Shown here piece after piece: positions 796-54,932 of a stretch of DNA of 60,000 nt. Source of the stretch: Botryllus schlosseri (taxonomy: Eukaryota); the NCBI GenBank assembly GCA_051294905.1, contig CM119372.1, forward strand, positions 19,842,001 to 19,902,000, read 5' to 3'. The notes beneath the pieces are model-generated. The model saw only the letters and a program-made list of their open reading frames with translations, searched no databases and was not told where the DNA came from. The translations under genes and the position numbers were made by a program. Position 1 is the first letter of the stretch; every line of letters begins with the position of its first letter.

Positions 796-1411
796 TAGGG
801 CTGTACAAAAATAACTTTTTTTTCCCGATTCAAGCCGGTCACCTCTCAAATCGTCAGGTTGCAGTAGAAAACCTTGCTCACCAAATTTCACTCGATTCCA
901 ACCAGTAAAGGCCTCCGCAGATCCAATTAAAAATTTTAATTTATTATGGAAAATTAAAAAAAAAATTTCCAAATTTTTCTGCCAACCCCATGAAATTGTT
1001 GAGCTGTCTTCAAAGACGTTGCAAAACAAATTTGAGTCAATTCCGACCAGTAGAAGCGGGGTTATGTGAGTTTTTCGATGATATTTCTCGGATTATCCTT
1101 GATCGGTGGATAATCCGCGATTTATCAACGAAAAACTCACATAACTCCGCTTCTACTGGTCGGAATTGACTCAAATTTGTTTTGCAACGTCTTTGAAGAC
1201 AGCTCAACAATTTCATGGGGTTGGCAGAAAAATTTGGAAAATTTTTTTTTTAATTTTCCATAATAAATTAAAATTTTTAATTGGATCTGCGGAGGCCTTT
1301 ACTGGTTGGAATTGAGTGAAATTTGGTGAGCAAGGTTTTCTACTGCAACCTGACGATTTAAGAGGTGACCGGCTTGAATCGGGGAAAAAAAGTTATTTTT
1401 GAACAGCCTTA
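796..1411. mobile_element. Foldback MITE (hAT-type, TAGGGCTG ends), almost fully palindromic
   Basis: TAGGGCTGTACAAAAATAAC...GTTATTTTTGAACAGCCTTA; about 290-bp near-perfect inverted arms; TSD ATAACCAC/ATAACCAG. Confidence 0.9.
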
Positions 1412-1448
1412 ATAACCAGTGACCTAAATCAAATGTTTTTGCGCCTAG

Positions 1449-2053
1449 GTAAGTTTCAGATCACCGTGGAATACAATGGCAAGACTATGAACGTGCAGGA
1501 AATCGACATCAGAGACGACGCCGAATGCAGAATTCTTTACGACGAGACCATCGCGTATCAACAACCACCACCTAGTATCAACCACGTATACCTGCCGCCG
1601 GTGGATGCCCACAACGAACCGGGCCTGCACAAGATTCTAGAAAACATGAAAAGGGGAATACGCGTAACGTGCGACACCAGACGCATGCAGATCAACATCA
1701 GACGCGACTGCCTGGCTCACGCCTACTACTTCACCGTACAAGGCCCGTCGCCCGGCAGCTTACAGGCTATGAGGCGAAAACAAGAGTGCTCCGTGTTCTC
1801 GTTTGAGGTTCTAGCAAACTCGCTCTGCGAGGAACAGCTCGTGGAAGGCAGGCCTCTGCAAGCTTTAACCAGCAATATCGAGATAGTGGTCGGCGTGCAG
1901 CCGAAAGCGGATCAGTTCGGAAAGTCGGTGAAGGGCGTGAAGATAACCCTGCACTCTCTCGCAGTGGTGAAGATGCACAGCACGCCGCTGCAGTCGCACG
2001 AGGTGCTGATCAGCACACCCACGAACAGCGTGGAGCCGATGAGCTGCGAGTGA
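1449..2053 (+). CDS. IRF: Interferon regulatory factor, 3' terminal exon encoding the IRF association domain (IAD, SMAD/FHA-like); upstream exons with the DNA-binding domain not identified in the window
   Basis: Translation (G)KFQITVEYNGK..ECRILY..VYLPP..LHKILENMKRGIRV..INIRRDCLAHAYY..MRRKQECSVFSFE..IEIVVGVQP follows the IRF C-terminal pattern (LLxxLERGVLL, IYAKRLCxxRVYW, LEREQxxxVFDF). AG acceptor at 1447-1448 (alternative at 1458-1459); GC-rich coding-like composition; stop at 2051-2053. Subfamily not assignable. Confidence 0.8.
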
Positions 2054-5918: not shown

Positions 5919-8900
5919 CTAAGCTACTGCTTGCACCAATCTTGTGGATTGCGGGGTCATTCCTCGCCCGGAGCTCGGCCGCCTTTGGGTTGCCGCTCCC
6001 GACTGGTTCCATCTGTGGTATTGTTCTTTGAGCCAGTCTGGTGTCGGATACCGTTCCACCATTTCCATTGATTGAGGAATGTATTCGGTGCGGTATATGG
6101 TGTTTCCTTGCAGAGGCGCGTCGCTCATGAAAGCTCTGTTGTCAGGCTTGCACGACCGGGCGGGTTGCGCGGAGTGTCGGACGTAGTGCAGGCGCGTGGT
6201 GGATTGGCCTTCGAACTTTCCTAAATAAGTGTAACGAAGTTATAAGCATTCAATGAAAGGTTTGAAAATTACCACAGTAAGCATTGTAAAAGTAGATCTG
6301 GCCGGGGTGACGCTCACCTTTAGTAGTAAATCGGAGGGGGTCATTTTGAAGTGTTAAGATGTAATTACTTTTACAAAATACGCTCAAGCGTTTACCCGGC
6401 GGAAAAGCACCAACTCTTGAGGCAATACAGACTTGTACAAATTTAAAAATATTTTAGTAACCGAGACTTGGTGAACTATTTGCCAGAAAACTCGACGCCA
6501 CCTAGTCTCAGTATTCACCAGAATATGTTTGTATGTTCCAAATACCAATTATATCGACAATTGGACACGGTGCCGACGCGGCCCAAGGTAAGAACGAGAC
6601 CCACATCCGTGACATAAGCTAAATATCGCCACCCTATTGATTGGGAGACTATTGCATCGTTGGTTTTCAAGTTCGCCAACGGAGTACTCGGGAAGGTTTT
6701 GCCTCAACTTTCACTTTGCTTCCACAAAACTACCAATCTTTGACACTTGGTATGATACTTGGTGAAGTAGAGAACATTTTTACGATTTGTTCGCATCGCT
6801 CTTATGGGGGATTAGTCGTGACAACCGGCCGAAACAACGCGTATTTGCAGTTAGTCGCGAAGATGCGCCTCGCAATTTCGAAACCAGATGCTAATAGTAC
6901 GCCGCAAAAAACGTCATGAAGGACAAAAATGCATATAACGTCCTCTCATTTCCTTTCCCTGTCCATATCGATTCAGTAGTCTACAAATTGCGGAAAAAAA
7001 TTGCGTCAAAATTTTAATGAAGGATTTAGGCCAGGGGTTCTCAAAGGGTGGGCCATGGCCCACTGGTGGGCCACAGAGCATTCTGAGGTGGGCCACAGAG
7101 CTATTTAGAAAATTTCAGAATTAATGTAAGTTTAGTTATATTTCTTATGTTATTCGCTAAAAATATATTCGTATTATCTAATTATACGTAGGCTACATAA
7201 AGCTTTTCATCCGACTCTGATTAGACGTAGTGGCACGTATGAAGTCAGCATTTGCAAATCGAAAACGTTACGGAGAAACGGTGGCTTTTCTACTGGCTAC
7301 GGAGAAACGGTGGCTTTTTTCTACTGGCTATGACAACCTACGGCTAACAACAAATAAAATAATTTCAAGCGTATAATAACTGGAAGATAATGCTGAAGTA
7401 ACCAAGTATTCCGGCAGGGTCATATGTCGTAGGCCGTTGAAAGGGGTATGCAATGAACTCGCAATGAAGTGCAATTGATGTACAGATTTTCTGTACTTCG
7501 GCAGGCCGTATTATTGCAAGCTAAATAGCCATAATTGCAAATTATTAGCAACTTCTGGGGGAGGTATACTGCACCACCGCAGCGAATCTTAATGGATTGA
7601 GGATTTATCGGAGCGCATTCATCTTTGAAGTCAGTTTAAAATGTCCGGCCTGGAAATCATTGTACGTAATGAAAGAGTCACAGGAATTGATTGTATCATT
7701 GGATTGAATATTCTGACATCGCAACTTCAGTTGTTTTGGTACAAGACATACAAAGTACATCATGCATATTGAAAAATCCTTCTCCACTTCTCTGTAGTAC
7801 CCCATTCACCAACGAATTGTTCGATGCTGGCCCAGAATGATTATAATATTCCCCACAATAGTATCACTAAAGCCCCAATCACATAGTGCGGGGATCTGAT
7901 CATTGTGCTTCGCGACGCGAATGGAGCAGCGTACGAAAATAATCTATACTTAAGAGTTTTTAGCTTATGATCTACCAGGGCCGTAACTGCCGCACCCAAA
8001 CCCCCAATTGGGGGAGCTCGAAGGGGCCCAAGTTTATTTCGTTGGTCGTTTGTTAGAGGATGTTTATTCAACGTGAAAAAATTTTTCGCGCTTCGCGCGA
8101 TTTCATAGCCCTGGAGATCGAGATTTAAATATCATCATCATCAGTTAGAGAAAAATGCGCATATTTTAGAGAAATAGGCATATCGGCGCTGTCCATGACC
8201 AAGCAAAACAGGATTAGGTCACTAGTATATCAGGTGGGCCACAGCACATTTTTAAACCGGAAAATGGGCCATGGCCAAGAAAGGGCTGAGAACTAGGGAT
8301 GGTGTGAACTTGAGGTTCACGTTCGCGTTCTGTGTGTGAACCTCGGAAATTTAGAGGTTCGCGTTCACAACAGAACCTTGGTAGGTTCTGCACTGTGAAC
8401 CTTTTTCATATATTACAATTATAACATTATAACATCTTTGGTTCAAATTTATTGCATTTCAACTGCGGGCCACTCTATGCATGGCGCTGGCAGCATTAAA
8501 AATCAACACTAAACGAGCATGCACCTTGACAATCTCAAAAGTTTTACTTGCTTTGTTACAAAAGTTTGCTCGAAATATCCAGCTTTCCGTTTGTGAATAT
8601 TTAGTGACTCTCGGCTGTGAGCTTGACCCGCAATCACAAAACATCACGAGCGAAATACGTAGTCAGCAAATGATGCTTATTCAACCAATCAATAAGATTG
8701 ATATCGTTTTCTGATGTAAAAATTCGAGAATGCGTACGGGGTCAATCATGACTCAATATCTTTACTACATCATTAAAACCAAATCCTTGCGATTGAGGGG
8801 TTGACTACTGCTGTATAACTTCTTAATGGGGTGATATCGATAGCAAGTATAGAAGCCCATTATACACTCTGCTCAATATCAATGCAGCAATACCCAGACG

Positions 8901-11900
8901 CCGAATACATTGTCTGGTCTGGCCTAGACCGTTAAGGGGTAAGTGTATATTCCCTGATAAGTCCTTGTCGAAATTGTTGACAAAGCGATGGAAGATATTG
9001 ATTTTATGGGAATATTATATACTTTGATTGCCTCAGTTGATACATTTAGCGACGTTTAAAACGCATCATCATTGTTGCATTATGTGACCCGAGTCGTCGC
9101 TAGGTATCCTGTACAACTGTACATTAATATAGGCTATCACTTCATTGAAAGACAGGGTTGGAATTAGCAATATGATGTCACGTGACGTCATGAGGTTCAC
9201 GTTCGCGTTCACACAGAACCTTTCAAAAAGGTTCACGTTCACACGAACCTGAACCTTTCAGAGGTTCACACCATCCCTAAATGAGAACCCCTGATTTAGG
9301 CTAATGCAAGGTTGCTGAATCCGATTCCGTGCTCGGAATTTCTCTCTCACGTCAGACTTTTTCCGAATGAATTTTTCTCATTTTCATAAATTAATCAAAT
9401 TTCGGCTTCCGTTAGTGACATCACGGTAAGCATACACCAGCAAAATATCAAACATTGTTATTCAAATCACTCATTCGAATGGGTGAGTTTTAGGTAAGAT
9501 TAAACCCAGTGATTCTCTATCTTTGTTCAATAAGAAGCTCTTTTCGACCCATAAAATTACACTGGTCTACAAATTTAAAAACAAACGGCCCAAAAATTTT
9601 AGTGATCGATTTAGGCTAATATTACGCTGCTGAATCCGATTCTGTGCTCGGAATTTCTCTCTCACGTCAGACTTTTTCGGTATGTATTTTTCTCATTTTC
9701 ATAAATTAATCAAATTTCTGCTTTCGTTAGTGACATTACGGATCAAACATCAAATATTGATATTGAAATCATCTATAATAATGAAACCTGGGTGGTTGTA
9801 GAACAGCATACCTGAGTTTTCGGTGAACTTGAATCCAGGGGTTCTCTATCTTCTTTCGGTCAGGACCTCTTTTTGACCCATAAATTTATATGTGGATGCA
9901 ACTATTTTTAGTCGGTAGCAGTTATCATCTTTATATACCACTCTTCGTTTAGAGATTATGATTAGTAGCTCCGTACCTAATTTAGTTCCCTATGTTATCT
10001 ATGTTTATACATCTGTCCTGCAGACGTTATCGGTCAATGCATTTAATGACAGCATTCTGCTGTTTCGTAAAACGTAAAAGTTTGCAAACAAATAAACATT
10101 GTATTGGTGGTATATTATGTAGAAAAGAATTGTTCACTCCGGTATAGGACCCAAATATGGGGCTTGTTTTGAAACAGTAAAAGAAACAGGATGTCTACTT
10201 TTCAAAAGAAAAAGGTGCTTATCATGATAACTTGAAAGAATTTATCATCAATAATTTCCACCTTTACTTATCATGCTATCTTCTTCCCCAGTTTCCATAT
10301 ACTGATACATTTTATCCGAATCGAGGAAAGCAGTTTCTGAACTATTTTTCTTTTGGTTTATTGCAGAGATGAGCATGGATTAGGATTGGGATGAGGAAAA
10401 AACGGATTTGTGCAATTTTGTCGGGTTTGGATCGCATTAGGATTTCAGATTTTTTTGTAATGGATTAGGATTGGATTTACCGATTTTCGGGGAGATTGAT
10501 GTTCTGTGACGAATGGCGACGAGGTTTTTCGTCCTACCAAAGTTACTTCATGTACTTTGGCACTCATTATGCGTTTTATTTCTTTTTACATAATTTTAGG
10601 CATACGATGAAGGCTTTTTACGAGGCATTCCAAGTTTATATCGGATTAGGATCAGGCATGGCCTACTAAATACAGTAAGTACTGCAAGTAGCTAAAATCT
10701 ACTCGAGTACCTCGAAAAAGTAGAAATTTTCAACATTATAATATTTCAAAAACGTGATGTGACAGAGCAAAAATAACGTCGGATTCGTATTCAGCGCCCC
10801 CAAATTAGGCATACTTGACCCAAAGAAGTCCTGGCGCAAAAATCGCGTAGACCAGTGATTATTTGAAATATTCAGGTTTTCCTAGTAAGACGAATTGAAT
10901 AAACGACCCATCTATCTTTTTCGAGAACTGAAGTAGGTTTTGTCTATGCTTGTGCTACTTACACAAGTGGTTATATCTTTCGACTACTTCCGCCTCTACT
11001 TCACGTTATCCAAGGCAAATCTAATTACTTTCTACACTTTGTATTTTGTAAAGTAGAGAGTTGTGTTTCCTGAAACTAATAACGTGGATACGGACATTTG
11101 TGGCGTTGCTGATGCGTTTACTGAGTACCAACGCTGAATACCTTGACCCCCTCTGCGTATCTCATACCTGACGGGTGCAGCGATTGATCACGCGGCTTCG
11201 GCTGCTCCCGGGCCGTGTTCCACTTCTTGAAATCCGTCCTGTAATTCGTGGTGCCCGAGAACGGCTTCGACTGCGCCATTCTGACTTGCGGCTTTTTCGA
11301 CTCGGCCGGACGGCAGCGCACATGCCGGAACTCCAGCTGACTGGTCGTCTGAAGGTCTATATCTCCTGTCGGCTTCCGGTACTTGTCCATCTCGTGGCGG
11401 TACGGACGCTCCACGGGCCACGCCACGAAGCTGTCGCGGAACTCAGAAGAAGACGCGATAGGCTCATTGGACATATACTGCGTCTGCGGTGGTTTTGCGC
11501 TTTCCGCGGGCAGCGCCCTGGTGCCTTGGTACGCGTCTCGGAATGTGGTTTTCGTGTCCATGGATACCGAGGGAGCCGCGTATCGCTTGGGCTCGCGTGG
11601 AGGCCTCGGCTCGAGATTGTGTGGAACGAAATTGAGCTTGTGGATGGTCTCGCTTTGTAAAGGCACCGCGGATTGAAACGCCACATTTGGGGGTTTCGCC
11701 GATTCCCTGGGCGGTTGTATGTAGCCCACGTAGTCCTGTCGAAAGAAATGGGGAGTTAGGCGTTGACCACGGCGCGCGCCGATCGGTGTTACGTTACCCT
11801 TCTGAAAGTGGAAATGTTTTCCATTTTTTGCTCCGGCAGTTTGTACTCTCTGTTGTCCTTATAGCTTTCTCTCGGCGGCAGAGCCCATTTTTTGTAATCG

Positions 11901-14900
11901 GCTGGAATGATAAGGGGGAATTTCACGAGTTTTCGTGTAGACTGTTGGTCTTGTTGTTTATAAGACAAAAACGATGTGCTTATCACCTGTTGGTCCTCTG
12001 CACTACAGTCAATAATGGCGTACAGAAAATGACATTACATGAAATAATATTTCAGCACAATACCAAAATAAAAGCAATACTCAAAATCGTAATTGACGAT
12101 TTCAGGACAATCCAAATTCAGTGGCGCAGGGGTACCATTTTGGTCATTAAGGAGGATCGTCAGACAGAATTAGAAATTCAATTAGGCTTATTTTGCAATG
12201 AGGAATCTTAGTGGAGATCGCGTGATTTAAAGATCCGGTGCTCCTACAGGTATACAGTGATTAAGCATGCGTAAGTGTTGAGTATATTTTACGCAGAACT
12301 AGGAATGTAGATCTTGAAATGTATTCAGGGATTGGATATTGTAGATGAGGTGGCACGTCCCTGCCAATTTTTCAAATTACAAATTCGTTAAGCATCTTCT
12401 TTGCGAACACGAACACGTCACAGTGCTATAAAGTAGCACGACTTCATCGACATTTTCCATTATCACGAAGCATAGCCTTGAAGACCGTTGGTTTTGATAA
12501 CTTTCATATTTATCCTGACATAAAGCTATTCGGCGTCCAATATTAAATTAAAACCATGAAAACGTTAATTAGTATTTGCTTTCGCGTTCACGAAACACTG
12601 GATAAGTGAGTGAAAAAACGTTTTTACGCGTAATAAAATGAATTCCAGGTCTCTGCTTTTTAGAAACCAGGTCTAGACACGGAGTGAGCTGGTAGCGTAG
12701 CCAAGGGCGAAAGGCGACCCAGTCCCTTTCAAATTTTACATTGTCATTGTCACGTCATATATTTTCACTATGCCACAATGCATCTATGACGTCACATGAC
12801 GGTTAGAAAGTGTCCCACTTTCCATCCTCGAAATTATTGTCTTGGGTACGCCAATCAACCGATCATTGTCCTGCCAGTCCATAACCATATGAGATGCACT
12901 TACTTGAGTAGGTGGGTACCGCGCTGAACTTGACATTAGGAATGCTCCTCGTCTCCTGTCTGCGTGCTAACTGTGGCCTTTCTCCTTTCAAGTACGGATA
13001 GTCCTGTTGGTATACACTGACTCCCTCCATCGATTTCGAAGGGGGCTTATACGTTTCGGCAGGTCTGTAGGTCTTTTCAGGCATCGGGTATGCAACGTAG
13101 TCGTTCCTGAAAAGAAACACCACCATTTCAATTTCAATATCCAATCGCAAAAATATTTCAAACCGTGACTCACATGAATGTCGTTTGTCCTGCCATGGCG
13201 GCTTCCGATTTTCTTACATCATTGGCAGGCTTGCACGATTCCGTCCCGACCATAGGGTGTCTCGGATACTTGTCGACGTATTCCGTGATACGCGTCGGCT
13301 GTTCTCCATAGTTTAAAAACCCGGCCGGCCTCGGTCTGTACCACCTGCGTTCATAGGGCATTGGATATTCGTTTCAAGATTTATAGCTCGAGTGACTTAA
13401 CTCCATGCGCAATGATGCATGCACTGCACAACATTAGGGATACATACATTATCCTAATGGCTTCTGTACACTGCACTCTTAGCAAAAAGAGTGTGTATTC
13501 ACACCCGAAGGGCCGAAAAGGGTGGTACACGAAAACAGCACCTAACTGAGAATTATATCACGCTCATAAGTCCTACTTGCCTACGTTCATACCTTCGTAC
13601 GTTTAGTGTATGCATGATGCATAATTTGGTATAAAATGTTGTTCTCGATTTAAACGGCGGTATAAATCTGCGGTAGGTTCTGGTTTCGTGTGCCATGGGT
13701 GTATATTCACACCCGTATATCAGGGGTGGCACGCGGGTGGAAATGCACACTCTTTGCGGTAAGAGTGTGCACACAAAAACCATGCATTTCGCCGGTTTAC
13801 GCCATCCGTAGGGTGACAATCAGCCTGAGATATATATGTATATTAGTATAACCATACGGATTGGTGTATTTGATCGTATGTACCCTAGGGTTATGACTAG
13901 AAAAAAAATTACCTGTAGCAGGAATTAATGAACATTTTGGTATAAATTAATAAAATTATAATCGTTTTGTTCAAATCGAAAAAAAATGTCCCGCACAAAT
14001 TAACTTCAATTTTTGACAGTGGTCCAAATATAGAAAAAATTTACAATTCAAAGGTGTTCTTTGCTACAAATTATCTTCATATATATGTCCTTTTGCACTC
14101 CTGGTACAGTTCATCCATCAATTTGACTTCCCTTTCTGTGATTATGTTAGTGCCAGGGACATCTACAACTGACATATCCGACTTGCAATGGGATTTTTAG
14201 GCACTTTATAGCTGCAGGACATTCGAGCGCAAAGAGAGCAGCAAATAAACTTTGGTATACTCTAGAGCCCGACCGATATTGAATTTCTTGGTCGATACCG
14301 ATATCTCACACCTTGGCCGAGAACCCCAATACATTCAGCCGATATTCAAAAGAAGCTGGATATACATAAGCACATTTTCAAAGCTTCAGAGCATTTATTT
14401 GAACATCTTTGCAGCCATTGGTATACTTGAACATGAAATAAACGAGAAAGGCTACATCTGGACACCAGTTAAGTGTTAGCTATGTGACATACATCAATAT
14501 TCTCAGTTCATCGGTCAAAGATGATAGTTTTATGACTTCCTACCGCAATGTTGTGACGTCACGAAAATTGCCGATGATTTTTTAGCTTCAATGGCCGATA
14601 CTGATAATTCTTTCAAAGTGTGATATCGTCCTGATATTATCGGCGAACCGATAATAGGTCGCGCTCCAGTATATTCCATCTATGGTCATATGGTTATAAT
14701 ACCAGGCTTCCTGACACGCATTTACGATGAATAAGCATGATATCTCAAGAGTTACTCTCCATCTGGGGACTTGGAAGTACGGAATTATACCCTTAAGCTC
14801 CATCTCGCATTGCGTAGAGATGGAAGTTTATGCTATCTGATTAGTGGTAATCTACTATTTTATCTGAAAGAGCGGCACGCTCTGCACAGCACATAGATAA

Positions 14901-40357: not shown

Positions 40358-40766
40358 AAATAAAGCATCACGCTCATGTGGATCGTCATCACTTAAAACA
40401 ATTATAAATTTATGTGGGGGTTCATAGACTTCATTTGATAACTAGGTATCGTACTACTTTCCATTGACTAACAGTTTGATCCTCGCCACTTGCCAGTCAT
40501 AGGCAGAGGAAGGTAGAGTGTGAGAGCTACTTTCCGAGACAACTATGCCCGGTTCGGACCTATACTTCTATGCGTCGGAGGTTTATCTGGGCTCCTCATC
40601 GTGGACTTCTCTGCATATGCAGTGTCGTACGAAAAGTCCAGATGAAGTAAGTAAAGTCGAGCTTACGAAAATCGGCTGCAACTGACTCTGACGAGGACGC
40701 GTGCGAGAGAGAGTGAAAGACGTGGATGAGAGAGTGACTGGAAGTCGTCCGCGGAAATCGTTTTGT

Positions 40767-41226
40767 TTGAAATCTGGGCATTGCCGATTAAACGCCCATT
40801 TGTTTAAAAATGGAATAGTTGAATCTTTTTGTTGTAGTTACTGCCGCTATCCCGAAACCGTCGAACACTTTATAATCTGTTGTCCAAAAGATGCTTTTCA
40901 TCGGAAATTTCTTATAAATAAATGTGCTCAATTGAAAGTGAATTATTTTTGTATTGCCGATTTACTCCTTGATCCTCAAATAACTCCTTATGTCGTTGAA
41001 TTTGTGTTAACGTGCAACCGCAATTTGTAACCTGAGTTTATCATTCTATTCTGATATTTGATTTGTGTTTTGTGTAACCGTCTTACCATCATGTTGTTGT
41101 GACCTCAGAATATCCACTTTATTCCGTTATTTCGTCATTATTCGGGTACAATGTTATTGACCTTGGCGCAAAAGGCCGTCAGGCGATAAGCTCCATTATT
41201 TTTGTTTAAAAAACAACAACAACAAC
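40767..41226 (+). mobile_element. 5'-truncated non-LTR retrotransposon (I/Nimb-group-like) 3' end
   Basis: LKSGHCRLNAHLFKNGIVESFCCSYCRYPETVEHFIICCPK matches the ORF2 C-terminal zinc-knuckle pattern (GHxxLNxHL..CxxC..ETVEHFLxxCP); stop at 41030; (AAC)n tail at about 41212-41226. Confidence 0.8.
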
Positions 41227-47309: not shown

Positions 47310-48753
47310 GTAGCCAGTGGGGAGAAAGGTGCTCTTGATGTTCTACTCCCAAAGTTAGATTTAGTAGCTTGTGATGCCGTCATTTTGTATCGACTCTTTG
47401 TAATTAGTCATGCCGAGATGTTCTCCTCTCAACATTTTCGTTTCGGTTACGTCCATGCCTCTATTGTGATGACTTTACCTAATTGCAAATATATACCACT
47501 TGAAACGCTACCCAAAGCGCCAGCGTGCTCTCGTATGCAGCAGGTCTATTTTTATGTCAGTGAGCTTCGCGCTGATTCTGGTTGAAATTCGCTCCGAGAA
47601 CATATATCTCCTCTAGAAAGAAAAGTTACGATTGAAAAAAGAGAATGAATAGCTACATAGTGAATGTATCAATATTGCGTTTATCGATTTGGGTTGAGTT
47701 TACAGCATGCACTCAATCTATCCAGCAGAGATTGCAAAATCAATAATAAGTTCCAATATATATATAAGTAGGCATATCGAAAGATGTAAGCAAGTCTGGA
47801 TCACTGATTGTATCTTTCCAAAAATTACAAAATGCCGCTATTATTACTACAAAGAGGTACGGTTCCGAATTAATTACTGTACACCAATGTGGTTTCGAGG
47901 TCCATTACTCTTTAGAATTCTGAATGCTGCATTCATAAGTCGTGAAAATATACTGAATTGATGTACGCAGAGAGCATCTCGTTCGAAAATGAGCAAGCAC
48001 TCGATGGGAGCTTAAAATCAGCAAGTAGGCATTGATCTCAGGCTCAGACCGACTCACGTGTCTACAACCCGTGAAAAACCCATCAATTTCGTCGAGAATC
48101 AACATATAAATACCAAGCTTCGCTAGTATGCATTGTATTAAATATAATGCTATTGACAATTGCTCATACTCATAAGCAAATGTAAAGACACGAAACGGTG
48201 CCTTTTTACCCTGCCATCGGTTAAGCAATAAAGTTCAATGAGTTTGAAACGGGATTGATATGCCAAATTGGGAAACTGTGGCGAATTTCAACAATTTAAA
48301 GCAAGATTCGAGTAGCTGTCTCCTACTCTGATTATCGAGTCGGCGTTCGAAAATATTTCTAGAATCCAAAATAAAAATCGCCGAGAAATGATATCACCGC
48401 ACTACATAAATGTAGGACAGTCTCATTAGTCGCTAATATCAGAGATACGATATGATATGAAATATTAACCCAATGGCGTCTAGAAAATAACGAGTGCATG
48501 ACCGCGTTTCACTGTTCTCAACCGCAGAGCGGAGACGGAGTAAATTTTTTTCCCTTTTCTAAAAGATGAATGTGAACAAGAATATATAAGCTGATGTATA
48601 CGAAGGCAACACTACAAAGGACGAAAACCCAGTTGTAGAAATGCATGATATTCGTCTGAGTGAGGTTATGAAATACGATTTGGTTGGATCGTCACAGATT
48701 CCTTTTACATTTTCAATTTACCTTTTCAGATATATGTATCTGTAAATCCTGTG

Positions 48754-51052
48754 ATGCTTTTAAAACCAATGATGAATTCTCGTTCGATATTATTCATGCA
48801 CCACTTTTCAACAATACTATTTTTTAAGGTAAGAAACGACTATATTCTTCGAAAGGGTGTCGCTTTTTGTTGTTGTTGTTGTTGTTGTTGTAGGTTATAT
48901 TTGCTGATCAAACAATCAAAAGCCTCAATTAATTTCTCGTTAGGATCATTACCGCTACTAGATATCGGGTTGAGATGTGACCATATCAAAACTACGGGTC
49001 AGCTAATCAGCCACAAAGACGGCTAATTGCCAGTCGTTTGTATATTATTACTAAGCGGCCAGGATATCTGTTCGTGTGATGATCGGTGGTCGTTTCTACT
49101 TTCAAACTGTGATGTGATAGGATCGATTATCGTGAGGCATGCTCGTGTTAAAGACGAAGGAATTGAGTCGCAAAATTGCTTGTCACTTGTTCAATAAAGC
49201 GGTAGAAAGATATTGGGAATATTAGGTAATCCGTTCACAAAGGTGTTAGGGAAACACGTCCTTATTACTAGAATTGATACAACTGATTTTAACCGTTGAG
49301 AATTCTTGCTTTACAGACAATAACACTTGTGATATCAGCGCCGCTACAGACGCAACACAGCCGAGAAGTAAATTCCGTAACTACCTGGAACGAAGTTCAT
49401 AGCTTTGTCGCAAATCGCGTACATAAATCCGACGAATATGTATTAACATTCGAAGGATACGTTTCTGACCTGCTGGCGGCACACCCGCATCTTTCTTCAC
49501 GAGGTAAGAAAAAGTCTTGCGCAGCATGAGCCTACACACCGGCCGATGCCGTCTGTGTCATGACCACGATGATTTGGAGTAGGGATATTAGGTTGATATA
49601 TCGGTATAGCGTAATTTGTAGCTTAAATACAAACGTCTTTCTGATCACATTATAAAAACGCGCGCTAGGTTGTATCTAAAATTAAAAAATCGTTATTACG
49701 ACGATGTTTTCTATGGTGATTAGTATATACCGGTTATTATCGAAGGTTGGTTGTATAACGTAGCAGATCACGACAAGTGTATGCGTAGAGATTACAAATT
49801 TATTGTTTCTATGTTAAATGTGTCATATTTTTAGAAATTTTTCGCCGATCAAAAGAGCGATTTCCCACTCACGACGAGGACACACGAAGGACACATCACC
49901 ACGCAAGACGGGCAGTGCCAATCAGGTATAACAGCTGATTGTTACTTAGCTACATCAGATATATGTTTGCTGTCGCACATGAAATACTAAATTAGCGTCA
50001 TATCGGTTTATGAACTAGTACATGCCGACAATGTCATTACAAGTAAGCAGGTATTAAAATATCATCGCTAATTAACAAGTACTAATTATTGACTAACATA
50101 ATCTAGCATTATTTCTCATAGTTCATGATCAACAGGCCGCGCAGGCTTCAGTATAGAATGTCACGAGCGTATGATTGTCCGTGCGGAGTCCGCAGTCCAT
50201 GTAAGCACGCTATTTTAGACTGTGTTTTCATTCGGTACATAATAAAATGGCGTAGGTATACATGGCATTAGTAGTCCTTGCACCACAACAAACACGGACC
50301 GTTTACAAATATATCTTCGACACATGACTAAGCCATTAACTGATTTCATGGTAGCTGTTTTATACGAATATCGCTTTCGTAGCTTGCAATCTAGTCTCAG
50401 ATGGTATGTCGCACGAAACTATGTCTCTGACGGTAGCCGTTTGGACATGTTCAAACTCTAGAAGGATTCTTCCGCGACACATTGATAATAAACAAGACAA
50501 GAGTATGCCATAAAAGTTCGATAACATCTTTCGCAAAGTGACTATAGTGCTCGAAACATTGATATCCCATGCTAGGTGTCCCGAAGTACCTCTTTAATTG
50601 TGCAATATCTCCTGATCTGATTTCATCTACATACATATTCTATACTTCAAGGAGAGACAAAATAACGGAATTATTCACGACCGATGACTAATAACAAGTG
50701 GGCCAATCGTTTTTATGAATGACCGGATAATTTAGGTACAATACCAATGTACGTAGTATGCATGGAGTGGAGAGTATCCCATACCTCGCGGACTATTTTG
50801 TGACATTTCACAGAAACCTCTGGAAATGTTATAAAAGTAAAAGGAAAGTATCAGTTTATAATCGTGCGTCTTTATTTCAGACATGGGGACAGATATCGAT
50901 GCTGGACGAACAAAGTAACGGGTCGCATGAGGTGCGAAGTCAGGCACCGACCGTTAGACACGATCTCCATACCCAGATCGAAATCCTTCCGCCGGCCACC
51001 GCGCGGAAAACGCTCGCTTCGTAGGCAAAATTCACTCGATCCGATGTCCTAG
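48754..51052 (+). CDS. Secreted peptide precursor B (osteocrin/natriuretic-motif-like, predicted C-terminal amidation), 4 exons, about 169-174 aa
   Basis: Exons 48754-48828, 49317-49503, 49835-49925, 50881-51052 join in frame through GT-AG introns (phases 0,1,2). Hydrophobic N-terminus (..SILFMHHFSTILFFKTITLVISA/PL), dibasic site ARR, then AVPIRHGDRYRCWTNKVTGRMRCEVRHRPLDTISIPRSKSFRRPPR-GKR. Start ATG could be 48754, 48769 or 48772. Confidence 0.75.
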
Positions 51053-53565
51053 AACACTTTCCCGGCCATTTTCCGCGATGCAAAATTTGGATCACACTCA
51101 CGAGCCTCAAATTTACGCGGAACGGATTCCCCTACCCCACACGCCACTGTTATTATGTTAAAATTTGTTCGCAGTGTTGACACCAAAATATACGAGTATA
51201 TAACACTGCACACGTCGGTCGTGAATAGCTTTTCTATTATATTGATGTATTTCCTCTTTTTCGGCATCTTCATGGATTTTTGCTTGCTTGAATATTTATT
51301 GCTGAAATATAATGTCAAGAAATACTTTGTGAAATTCGTGATGACCAATGGCTCGACTCGACGCCTTTATCCACGAATGAAGGAATTTCCACACACATCG
51401 GTTTTGTGAATCAAGACAGGGAGTGCAATCCTCGACTGCTCACAGCGTCTGCCTCTCCAATCCTGGGCTCTTCCACATTTTACTCATTTTCCAATTTAAG
51501 AGATTGGGCTTTAATCTGAATGACATGCCATTAGGGCTTCTCCAGGAACAACATTAGCTGCTGGGCTGACAAGCAGGAATCTGGTCAGATCCAGAATAGC
51601 TTTAGTCAGGGGCTATGTTCGGTAGATTGTTCAGCATTTCGGTTTACCAATTGTTGTCGCAGTGGTGGGGGTAGTATATAGTGTACCTTCCACATCTCAA
51701 ACGTTATTTGCGAGGCAGGCATAGGTTGACTCAAGAATTTCCACTTAATTGTTGGAAGTTCATCTGGGCTCCTTCTCGTCATCTGATACGCCTAAGCGGG
51801 TCGTGCTGAAAGTCGGCAGGTCAGGAATCATGAAGAACAATCGATCAGGTGCAAAATTACCAGTGCAGTCAAAACACCATGACTGCAATAACAACAACAG
51901 CAACACCAGTTTAATAATTAAGCTTTATGATGTGTTTATAAGAAGCCGTAAATTTTAACCCTTATATAAGCAAGGCGTGAAAACACGCAGCATTCTGACA
52001 ATCATCTGGGCACATTTTTAGTTCGCTTTTCTGTCATCTCTTCCACGCTACAGTCGAACCATTTTACGTAAGAAAACTGATGATTTCTTGCTTTTTATCA
52101 GCTATGCTTGTTTTTGAGTATTTGGGGAAGATTTGTGTGTTGATTTTGCCTATCCACAATTTATCAATTTATATTAAAATGAATACTATTTATTTCCATC
52201 CATGGCAGGAATTTGATCAATTTGTTTTCTAAACTTCAAATTTACATGGGCACCAATTATTTTAGTAAACTTGTTAGTAGAACTTCGTTTTTGGTTTATT
52301 TAGTTTTACTCGGTTCAGTCGACATTTAACATGTCTTTAATCGCGACTATATATGAAATCAAAATCATGTTTTGCGGCCGTGATTTAGGTGTCACGTTAC
52401 AGGATAGATAATGGTAAACTAACCTGCACTCATCAAAATATTTACGTTTGTTCGGTATGTTTATGCCAACGAGAAGTGGAATTTATAAGATACTTTGATG
52501 AGAAGAAACACCAAGTCACGTTTAAAATAAATTCTGGGTTTTCTTAACATGGAACTAGATTTGTGATTGCAGTGTAATACCGATATAGCTTAGGCGCTTA
52601 TTCGGGGTTTTGACGTATGGTTAGATAAAGACATTTCTGACATTTACTACGATTAGGTATAAGAGAATATTCTGGATTCTACCGAATGAAACGACAATTT
52701 CACATCACCCTCGCGTAATTACGACGTCAAATCAAATAAGAGACAACGAACGTATTGTGAATCATCGTTGAAATTGCCTCGGAACCCTGGAAATTGGGCA
52801 GCATTTTTATAAATGAATTAATGTTATTGCGCAAAAATCCGCGATTGGGATCTTGCACAGTGCTAATATTAGAATGCGGTTAGCGGCGATACTCTGCTCC
52901 TCCGGGCCATATTTGATAGCACCTTTATGGCATTAGGAGAAAAGAGTCGAGATTCTTAACCAGTCACTCCTATAGTCTGGTTTTCCAGCGGTTATACACT
53001 CTAACCTTTCGATCTTGACACAGTAAGTCCGACACGGTTGATCTTTATTATATATAATAATAAATCCATTAAAGACATATATATTATATAAATATACAGT
53101 GCTACTTTGAAGAAAAGTTACGCAAGAATGTTTATGGAGAATGCCACTTCTTAGATACTATCTGTCCCCTTACGAAGTGGGTCCCTCTTGGTAGCCATGC
53201 GACGCGATATTAAGGTGTCGATTATGACCAGGAAATAAATATCGATGTTTTGTTGGTCAGCGGAAAAGAAAAGTACAGTGTAATGGCAACCGGGAACACA
53301 AACATCTATTCGGCTATACGATGAGCCTAACCAAGCGTGTATGACGAGGGTATGTTTTGCTTATAGCTTGTTGAGCATGGCATGCGATCTGTACCACCGC
53401 ACTAATGAGGGTCATCTATATGCTACTCGCATTGCTCATAGTGCATGTGTTGTGCAAATGTATCTGCCTTTATGTAAAAAGTAATGTTCCAACAGCGTTC
53501 ACAGTAACGGAAGACGACGGACAAGTATACGATGAAAAGTTCGCAGATTTCCACGTTTTCCCAGG

Positions 53566-54230
53566 TTAAATTCGTTGATAGCGATGGTTTCGTCTGTTAG
53601 GTCTACATCCGAAAAATTTGTTGTTCGAGATAAAGTCCAGAGGAGCTCCGAAGCCGCACTTTGCGATGCAAACCGCTCGCTTATTATACGCGCATATATA
53701 CCGATGTCCGTTGGCCTGTCTCTTGCGCTTGTGAAGTCGCGGCAATAAGGACGCTGAACGGAAGATATAGGGAATTACTAGACCGATCCAACTTGGCGAC
53801 GCGACATTTCAACGCCCCTTATCAGTTTCATTTTACACTCACCCGCTGAGCCTACGTAGTACCAGTCGTAATTTTGGAAGCTACTGATTGGCGTCGGCGG
53901 TACGTCTTCGTAATCGGGTAATAGCACCTTTGATTTCATAATCGTGGGGTAGTTTTCGACGATTCTTCTCAGCAGCGTAGGCACTTGCGATGATCGGCCC
54001 GGATTCTGCAAAGCGCGATGTCAATCATTAACATCTATTCCTTTCATGGTGGTATTAGACTGTGAACTACTGTAAATTATCTCCTTTTGTTCGCAACGAA
54101 AGTTTCGCTATTTATAGTTTGTGGATCTATATTTACATGCAGCAATACTTACATGGAAATCATTACGCTTGGCAGAAGCGCAAACGATGAGCTGCACCAG
54201 TACGATCCAAATCAGAGATTTCGCGTTCAT
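53566..54230 (-). CDS. Secreted peptide precursor A, natriuretic peptide/osteocrin-like, 3 exons, 142 aa
   Basis: Exons 54230-54153, 54005-53843, 53753-53566 join in frame (donors gtaagt and gtgagt; acceptors ttgcag and ttcag). Protein: MNAKSLIWIVLVQLIVCASA-KRNDFHNPGRSSQVPTLLRRIVENYPTIMKSKVLLPDYEDVPPTPISSFQNYDWYYVGSAASLLPRLH-KRKR-QANGHRYICAYNKRAVCIAKCGFGAPLDFISNNKFFGCRPNRRNHRYQRI*. It has a signal peptide, a furin-type site and a Cys-ringed FGxxLDxI motif. Confidence 0.85.
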
Positions 54231-54932
54231 CGCGTGCTTGCCGCTCGATTCTGACAGTGATTAATGAGTTTTTAACGACCTTTTCGCATTCAATGTCGAG
54301 CACTTGCGGGTCGGAAATGCCTGATAGCCGGCCGAACACTGTCTCTTCTTTCGAGCTTTCTTCTTTTTCCAATCGGCGTGTATATCCCAAGAGAGATTCT
54401 TTGCAGATCTTCCAGTCGTCAGATACAAGTTCCTCCGAGTGATATTTCCCAGTATGTGCCGCGGTGGGAGGTGTCTAATACAAAACTGACGCCTATCCCG
54501 TTCGATTTCAAGTGTCTATTTCCTCTAACGATAGTCGCAGATCCTATTGAAAATCTGCCGGCTCGCGCTTTTATACTGACCGGCACTCTCCGAAAAACCA
54601 CATCATGCACTTCTTCTTCCGACCGATTCAAGTTCTCCATTTTGAATTGTCGGCCGCTGCACGTAGGCGAGTTGGTAGCACTGATGGGGCATTGTCACGA
54701 GTTTGATGGCTGTCGCGAATGACAGTAATTTTATAATACGCGTTAAAGTTATTTCTGACGCATTATGATGATTTTCTCCCAGTTCGTTTGTCGAAGAACC
54801 GAAACATAAACTGGCCGTAATCACCATTCCGCGAGAATAAACTGATTTTGGGAATTTTCATGCTCACACTTGATGAGTTTCCTGCGTTGTTTGCTTCACG
54901 AGTTGCAGATTCTTGAATCATATGCTATACAG

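Follow-up and report, generated by a model that had tools for sequence, protein, structure and literature searches.

A conserved peptide gene with a natriuretic-like loop and its convergent neighbor in the tunicate Botryllus schlosseri

Here, we present two small, adjacent genes of the tunicate Botryllus schlosseri, one of which is a candidate gene for a natriuretic-type ligand. Both lie in a stretch of 60,000 nucleotides of assembly GCA_051294905.1 (contig CM119372.1, positions 19,842,001 to 19,902,000 of the forward strand; hereafter, the window, numbered from its first letter). The window is intron-bearing animal DNA with about 40% G+C and forms part of the genome contig labeled C2. Gene A (plus strand, 48754-51052) and gene B (minus strand, 54230-53566) are convergent, and their stop codons are 2,513 bases apart; the original prediction for this locus, a tail-to-tail pair with stops about 2.5 kb apart, was correct on this point. 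We find that the two are real, undescribed peptide genes and that gene B is a conserved, prepropeptide-like gene. The same genome encodes a natriuretic-receptor-A/B-like guanylyl cyclase and a clearance-receptor-like ectodomain gene. Judging by motif and precursor layout, B might encode a natriuretic/osteocrin-like ligand of these receptors, a possibility that we place a little below an even chance. The reading of the locus as a two-ligand natriuretic system is a good, testable hypothesis, not a finding.

Gene B encodes a product of 142 amino acids in three exons on the minus strand, running from an ATG at 54230 to a TAA at 53566-53568. Exon 1 (54153..54230) comprises 26 codons, the ATG included, and ends at a phase-0 donor, GTAAGT. 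Read by eye, its translation contains a predicted signal peptide, MNAKSLIWIVLVQLIVCASA, followed by six residues. Exon 2 (53843..54005; 163 nt) encodes the pro-region and ends in phase 1. Exon 3 (53566..53753; translation P0001) encodes a linker with KRKR, a four-cysteine domain, and a basic tail that ends in QRI before the stop codon. The KRKR (53719..53730, minus strand) is a predicted furin or prohormone-convertase site before the mature peptide. Behind this tetrabasic site, at the C-terminal end of the precursor, sits the C-x16-C loop CGFGAPLDFISNNKFFGC (53605..53658, minus strand), a natriuretic-like “ring” if its two cysteines pair as predicted. Gene B therefore has the layout of a prepropeptide, with a hydrophobic N-terminus, a pro-region, KRKR, and a cysteine domain that extends to the stop, from which secretion and cleavage are expected.

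Transcription of the locus was assessed with assembled contigs from public runs labeled with the same organism (X1, X2, X3, and X6). The type of each run could only be guessed; the spliced form, and not the run label, was taken as proof of RNA. Both B introns are removed in contigs from runs X1 and X3 (54153>54005 and 53843>53753), so that the two junctions flanking exon 2 are each seen in spliced form. The 3′ untranslated region (53079..53565, minus strand) extends at least to 53079, covered by an X2 contig (53079-53551) and by X1 and X3 contigs. The 5′ untranslated region (54231..54540, minus strand) extends at least to 54540, covered by X2 contigs (54163-54540) together with X1 and X3. A raw RNA run, X14, had no reads over 48300-54700 and was not counted as a test of expression. 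Together with two of the three A introns described below, the B junctions bear out the earlier view that both genes are real.

Gene B is conserved in at least two other ascidians. A phmmer search with the last exon of B among 1.84 billion representative proteins returned three proteins at E ≤ 0.001, two of which are true relatives. The first (P0004) is the Styela clava protein XP_039267199.1, annotated as uncharacterized protein LOC120342433, which has 139 amino acids and is 68% identical over the last exon. The second (P0005) has 144 amino acids, is 58% identical, and comes from one assembled transcript contig of 1,290 bases. The third protein (P0003), although the top match, was rejected as a relative: it is a tandem-repeat protein of 1,902 amino acids without any of the cysteines, and its score is the sum of unit matches of about 23 bits with 16 to 17 identities in 49 positions per unit. 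Among 5.8 billion clustered proteins, searching with a profile yielded 251 candidates, only two of which were B relatives, both already known. Judged by these relatives, the host is probably a styelid-like ascidian.

In all three B-family sequences, a predicted signal peptide is followed by a pro-region and basic sites, and the C-terminal domain has four cysteines and ends in QRI. The domain, C-x7-C-x3-C-GFGAPLDxIS-x5-FG-C, is almost invariant; with its QRI end it is found in B and in both database relatives and is absent from A. Across the last exon, 26 of 61 positions are invariant in all three sequences, including C20, C28, C32, C49, GFGAPLD, IS, FG-C, and the terminal QRI. The R-Q that follows KRKR is likewise invariant in all three orthologs. 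Conservation also extends upstream: the N-terminus of B is conserved in the transcript-derived P0005, and exon 2, which matches a profile of the B orthologs at 1.8e-19, is conserved in both P0004 and P0005. In the genome (495.5 Mb in 219 contigs searched), gene B is single-copy, and a DNA pattern encoding CGFGxPLD occurs once in the 495 Mb. A divergent haplotype, seen in run X3, differs from B by six synonymous and two non-synonymous changes, which is consistent with purifying selection, although the numbers are small.

This pattern of conservation bears on what kind of peptide B might be. In each of the three species, the predicted mature peptide is strongly basic (about +7 to +9 when K, R, and D are counted by hand), and B has four cysteines. 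Ascidians are known from published work for antimicrobial peptides. B could thus be a cationic, disulfide-stabilized host-defense peptide and not a hormone. We consider this unlikely, since what is near-invariant, at an overall identity of 57-58%, is an uncharged core (GFGAPLD-IS and FG-C) and the last three residues, which looks like a surface for receptor recognition. Furthermore, B is single-copy, unlike many expanded families of defense peptides.

A resemblance to natriuretic peptides lies in the loop. By one published definition, the natriuretic family has a 17-residue loop, C-X15-C, with conserved ring positions Phe2, Ile6, Asp7, Arg8, Ile9, Gly10, Ser13, Gly14, and Leu15 (PMC12343078). 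With one extra Gly set aside, the B loop matches this ring at Phe2, Leu6, Asp7, Ile9, the penultimate Gly, and both Cys.

Several results weigh against a natriuretic identity for B. Its loop is C-x16-C, and thus 18 residues long instead of 17, in all three orthologs. In place of natriuretic Arg8 stands F, T, or Q, depending on the species, position 10 is Ser instead of Gly, and positions 13 to 15 are not Ser-Gly-Leu. An extra N-terminal C-x7-C disulfide loop, predicted in B, has no counterpart in natriuretic peptides. No Pfam family, ANP included, was matched at E ≤ 10 by the last exons of B and A (P0001 and P0002) or by P0004 and P0005, in searches whose HMMER filters may drop weak matches. 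No natriuretic peptide chain was among the seven PDB sequences matched at E ≤ 10, and the protein atlas gave no usable match for B. The B family was found in three species only, and not in other annotated tunicates, by protein and profile searches. The two genes that we identify elsewhere in the window are of the interferon-regulatory-factor (IRF) and SAXO types, neither of which is known as a neighbor of vertebrate natriuretic peptide genes. Finally, a six-frame search of the genome with the ANP profile left 2 of 26 candidates at E ≤ 10, neither of which is gene B. The best of these genome matches (C6:26705757-26705816, minus strand) was itself rejected: it scores 20.7 bits, below the cut-off of 27 bits, and is off-frame, beside an RNase H-like retroelement, and without a closing cysteine. 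This match illustrates that the core motif arises easily by chance.

B is therefore not a demonstrable member of the natriuretic family, and what remains is a likeness at the level of motifs. This likeness gains weight because the matching residues are invariant, because the loop is of nearly the right size and stands at the end of a processed precursor, and because the host is a tunicate. B might instead be a lineage-restricted ascidian signaling peptide that acts on another receptor, for example, one coupled to G proteins, with its natriuretic/osteocrin likeness due to chance or convergence. The Pfam, PDB, and genome tests of B for the natriuretic family are negative, and both loop length and key residues differ from those of natriuretic peptides. 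Weak similarities are also common, as the unrelated 1,902-amino acid tandem-repeat protein illustrates by aligning to B without the cysteines, and in the portion of a published motif search that covers non-vertebrates, 10 natriuretic-like stretches were judged incidental (PMC6878697). Set against this, the residues of B that match the natriuretic ring are exactly those that are invariant in all three orthologs. They also fall within a loop close to the expected length, at the C-terminal end of a precursor predicted to be processed, in a host from the vertebrate sister group that possesses the right receptor types without a known ligand. We regard an ascidian-specific peptide with another receptor as somewhat improbable, while giving it appreciable weight.

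No living group is closer to vertebrates than the tunicates. We find that natriuretic-type receptors are present in this genome, where profile searches gave 26 cyclase exon matches and 15 ANF_receptor exon matches. Two loci among these are of natriuretic type. At the locus on contig C16 (about 2.488-2.511 Mb, minus strand; C16:2488317-2511000), identity to a fish NPR1-like protein is 51-60% in the kinase-homology exons and 73% in a cyclase exon. Its juxtamembrane exon reads WPxGxPPPDxPKCGF and matches NPR1 at 7e-7. Another ectodomain exon of this locus had no PDB match at E ≤ 1. The gene on contig C5 (about 15.71-15.726 Mb, minus strand; C5:15710001-15726000) has a first exon with matches to the clearance receptor (2.4e-10) and to receptor A (6.4e-8). 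Compared with a fish NPR1-like protein, this exon shows 25% identity, and more ectodomain-like exons follow. A search for a tunicate receptor protein yielded just two fish NPR1-like models, and their ectodomain appears to be without one segment. None of 123 downstream open reading frames (ORFs; at least 38 amino acids) at C5 had any Pfam match, and genome-wide searches placed no kinase or cyclase exon there. We infer from this that the C5 gene has a clearance-receptor-like architecture without a cyclase. The check for NPR-A/B-like and NPR-C-like receptors that the original prediction had proposed thus came out in its favor, with both types present.

Further receptor-like genes were seen in the same searches. 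A receptor guanylyl cyclase lies on contig C9 (C9:17859089-17872230, plus strand), with an ANF_receptor exon (a 299-amino acid open frame; 2.4e-5, a weak match) 11 kb upstream of its cyclase exons; a PDB search with this ectodomain exon gave nothing at E ≤ 0.01. Two more receptor-cyclase loci are found at 21.10 and 21.14 Mb on C9. Beside the C5 gene, we recognized by eye a small Ras-like GTPase gene upstream and a Sec7/PH (cytohesin-like) gene downstream.

Gene A encodes a product of 174 amino acids in four exons on the plus strand, from an ATG at 48754 to a TAG at 51050-51052, and its three introns are all GT..AG. The proposed exon 1 (48754..48828) has the ATG and 25 codons, is hydrophobic, and ends at a phase-0 donor, GTAAGA. 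No contig from any run covers this exon or the first junction, and the start and signal peptide are predictions from the DNA alone. An upstream exon is needed, since exons 2 to 4 hold no usable in-frame ATG. Runs X4 and X5 had no contigs across 48400-51500. Exon 2 (49317..49503; 187 nt) encodes the pro-region, ends in phase 1, and is covered by an X6 contig at 49345-49501. Exon 3 (49835..49925; 91 nt) encodes a basic linker and ends in phase 2. The junctions on its two sides are seen in contigs, 49503>49835 from run X1 and 49925>50881 from run X6. Exon 4 (50881..51052; translation P0002) encodes a C-x10-C pair, PLDTIS, GKR, a tail, and the TAG. The core of the A peptide, CWTNKVTGRMRC followed by EVRHR-PLDTIS (50900..50968), has no cysteine pair around the motif. 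By general prohormone rules, the GKR (51005..51013) would be a cleavage and amidation signal. A weaker second motif, SLDPMS, stands at the C-terminus.

Exon structure agrees in large part with what had been proposed for the pair. The intron phases are 0, 1, and 2 in A and 0 and 1 in B. A phase-0 intron after codon 25 or 26 had been claimed for both genes, and exon 1 indeed has 25 codons in A, as predicted there, and 26 in B; the phase-1 intron after the pro-region exon is likewise present in both. The peptide was correctly placed in the last exon of each gene, but the 91-nt exon 3 of A had gone unmentioned. This exon is required for the PLD frame because a direct join of exons 2 and 4 leads to a dead end after 12 codons. 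The description of A as ring-less holds insofar as no cysteine pair encloses PLDTIS; A is not free of cysteines, having C-x10-C just upstream.

In the space between and within the genes, we also observed (GTT)n / (AAC)n-like microsatellites at 48868-48893, in intron 1 of A, and at 51883-51908, between the genes. X3 contigs lie over 52332-52793, a part of the intergenic space. Because X3 also covers the introns of gene A, this coverage may represent DNA or unspliced RNA and not a third transcript.

The original prediction saw the shared exon layout of A and B as consistent with an old inverted duplication. The two genes have in common G-x-RY-x-C, a second Cys, and PLDxIS, and when A is aligned with the three B sequences, eight columns show no variation. 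A pairwise BLASTP comparison of A and B gives 12 identities in 29 positions (E = 0.006). A relaxed motif, P[LMI]D.[ILV][SG], occurs only twice in the six frames of the window, each time as an exact PLDxIS, once in the last exon of A and once in that of B. Formal tests do not lift the likeness of the two genes above chance. A hidden Markov model of the B domain gives the A exon 2.9 bits (E = 19), which ranks it about 42nd among 3,017 stop-to-stop ORFs from 146 kb of the genome, with only PLDTIS aligned. The Smith-Waterman score of A against B, 35, is equaled in 92 of 5,000 shuffles, and 6 of the 3,017 unrelated ORFs outscore A. Comparison of A with the tails of the two orthologs fares no better, as 448 of 2,000 and 204 of 2,000 shuffles reach the score. 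A word-based search of proteins of 99-2,000 amino acids gave eight candidates and no A relative at E ≤ 1, and a protein search of the genome found none. Sequence differences in A seen in runs X3 and X6 comprise six non-synonymous and two synonymous changes, three of the eight coming from one thin contig; none falls in the C..C..PLDTIS core. Thus, by alignment and profile tests, the similarity of A and B is within the range of chance. With no DNA-level inverted repeat between the genes beyond microsatellite-like pairs, and with one more intron in A than in B, the duplication claim has no statistical backing.

The alternative, on an axis separate from the identity of B, is that A is not a paralogue of B at all. 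It would then be an unrelated small gene, or a spliced non-coding transcript with a coincidental frame and PLDTIS. The profile and shuffle results, the want of an ortholog in the size range searched, the extra intron, and pro-regions dissimilar to those of B are what one would expect in that case, as are a majority of non-synonymous differences and a start exon without contig cover. Yet within the 60 kb, PLDxIS, which does not vary in the B family, has its one other occurrence in the final exon of the adjacent gene. There it follows dibasic sites and is preceded, as in B, by a Cys pair and G-x-RY-x-C, in a frame that stays open across three spliced exons with two confirmed junctions. From residue frequencies, we roughly estimate the chance of an exact PLDxIS in 174 residues at 1.5e-4. 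That A is unrelated to B or non-coding is a live prospect that we hold at slightly less than even. That A is instead a diverged neighboring paralogue of B, which kept the first Cys pair and PLDxIS and lost the loop, stands at roughly even odds. A keeps the first pair of cysteines and lacks both members of the second, which suggests that the disulfides of B are C1-C2 and C3-C4; conversely, the A pattern would be as expected from the loss of one disulfide of such a peptide. An AlphaFold2 model of the last exon of B, built on an alignment of three rows, is too poor for a fold search or for disulfides to be read from it (mean predicted local distance difference test, 54; predicted template modeling score, 0.34).

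If B is a natriuretic/osteocrin-like ligand, its precursor would be secreted after removal of the signal peptide and cut after KRKR to release a cationic four-cysteine peptide, probably folded with disulfides C1-C2 and C3-C4. The peptide would act on the C16 cyclase receptor, on the C5 receptor, or on both, with signaling through cyclic GMP. A might provide a linear sister peptide without the loop, perhaps amidated at GKR. This peptide could occupy the receptor that is without a cyclase, which is the weakest step of the proposed mechanism. The full scheme of an agonist plus a modulator, with A as the modulator, is on the present evidence improbable.

Natriuretic peptides have been stated in one published account to be known from vertebrates alone, with receptors that are far older (PMC6878697). 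Tunicate receptors of this type would accordingly be without known ligands. Our full-text literature searches found no paper on a tunicate natriuretic- or osteocrin-like gene or on LOC120342433. Gene B offers a concrete ligand candidate: it is conserved, transcribed, and present in one copy, its peptide has a natriuretic-like loop, and the genome has both receptor types. If B truly were a hormone gene of the natriuretic/osteocrin type, this would overturn the view that the peptides arose only in vertebrates, after their receptors. In the broadest version of this proposal, B would be the first such gene outside vertebrates and would stand beside a loop-less sister. The ancestor that tunicates share with vertebrates would then already have had both ringed and linear ligands, for receptors with and without a cyclase, or such ligands would have evolved on two occasions; we find this version doubtful, although less so than the agonist-plus-modulator scheme. 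If B is no natriuretic-type ligand, it still represents a family of ascidian peptides, undescribed and strongly conserved, for which a receptor is to be sought. The question of what binds invertebrate receptors of this type becomes one for the bench, with two peptides and two receptors.

The rest of the window was scanned for domains with 127 of its 146 ORFs of at least 72 amino acids, the 19 omitted being frames that overlap the IRF, SAXO, A, and B exons. Matches in the window were an IRF-3-type domain, SAXO (two ORFs), and one sub-threshold GTPase P-loop. The IRF-3-type association domain (Pfam PF10401, 1e-10) lies in a long exon at 1403-2053 (plus strand) and belongs to an interferon-regulatory-factor-like gene at the left end of the window. 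Exons of a SAXO1/2-type gene (stabilizer of axonemal microtubules) are found at 5922-13213 (minus strand), with matches to PF05217 at 11121-11858 (1.3e-19) and 5922-6239 (1.3e-4). At 40692-41030 (plus strand), an open frame of 112 amino acids has a Cys/His-rich end that by eye resembles the C-terminus of a non-LTR (long terminal repeat) retrotransposon ORF2; it had no Pfam match at E ≤ 0.001.

Among the known systems closest to B is LOC120342433 of Styela clava, an ortholog with the same precursor layout, the four-cysteine domain, and the QRI end. It has no recorded function. It differs from B in its signal peptide and linker, and in a dibasic site directly preceding its first Cys, a site that P0005 also carries and B is without.

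Endothelins also invite comparison. They have C-x7-C-x3-C, closely followed by L-D-I-I, and B has C-x7-C-x3-C and then GFGAP-LD-F-I. Unlike endothelins, B has neither a C-x-C start nor a terminal Trp, its fourth Cys lies downstream, and it gives no Pfam match. We rate the likeness as a coincidence of short motifs.

The natriuretic-like motifs of osteocrin (musclin) have a F-G-x-P-[LM]-D-R-[LI] core between basic sites, and osteocrin is known to bind only the clearance receptor. The F-G-x-P-[LM]-D part of this core is even closer to the GFGAPLD of B. Both GFGAPLDxIS of B and RPLDTIS of A resemble the osteocrin core, in A without a loop around the motif. Osteocrin has two natriuretic-like regions, NM1 and NM2 (PMC10220261). 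Unlike osteocrin, B is looped, and A has no F-G and no Arg in its motif. Measured against osteocrin as a linear and cysteine-free peptide with two motifs between basic sites, A departs in having the C-x10-C pair and a single PLDTIS. The Pfam family Musclin (PF11037) gave no hmmscan match at E ≤ 10 for A, B, P0004, or P0005, and no first-look candidates in a genome search whose control matched nowhere.

With the vertebrate peptides ANP, BNP, and CNP (PF00212), the comparison is one of architecture as well as motif. B has a long basic tail ending in QRI, unlike natriuretic peptides. Like them, it would carry a C-terminal disulfide loop in a secreted prepropeptide, behind basic cleavage sites. 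Within this loop, B and the natriuretic ring both open with F-G, carry a central L-D-x-I, and finish in G-C, with matching spacing.

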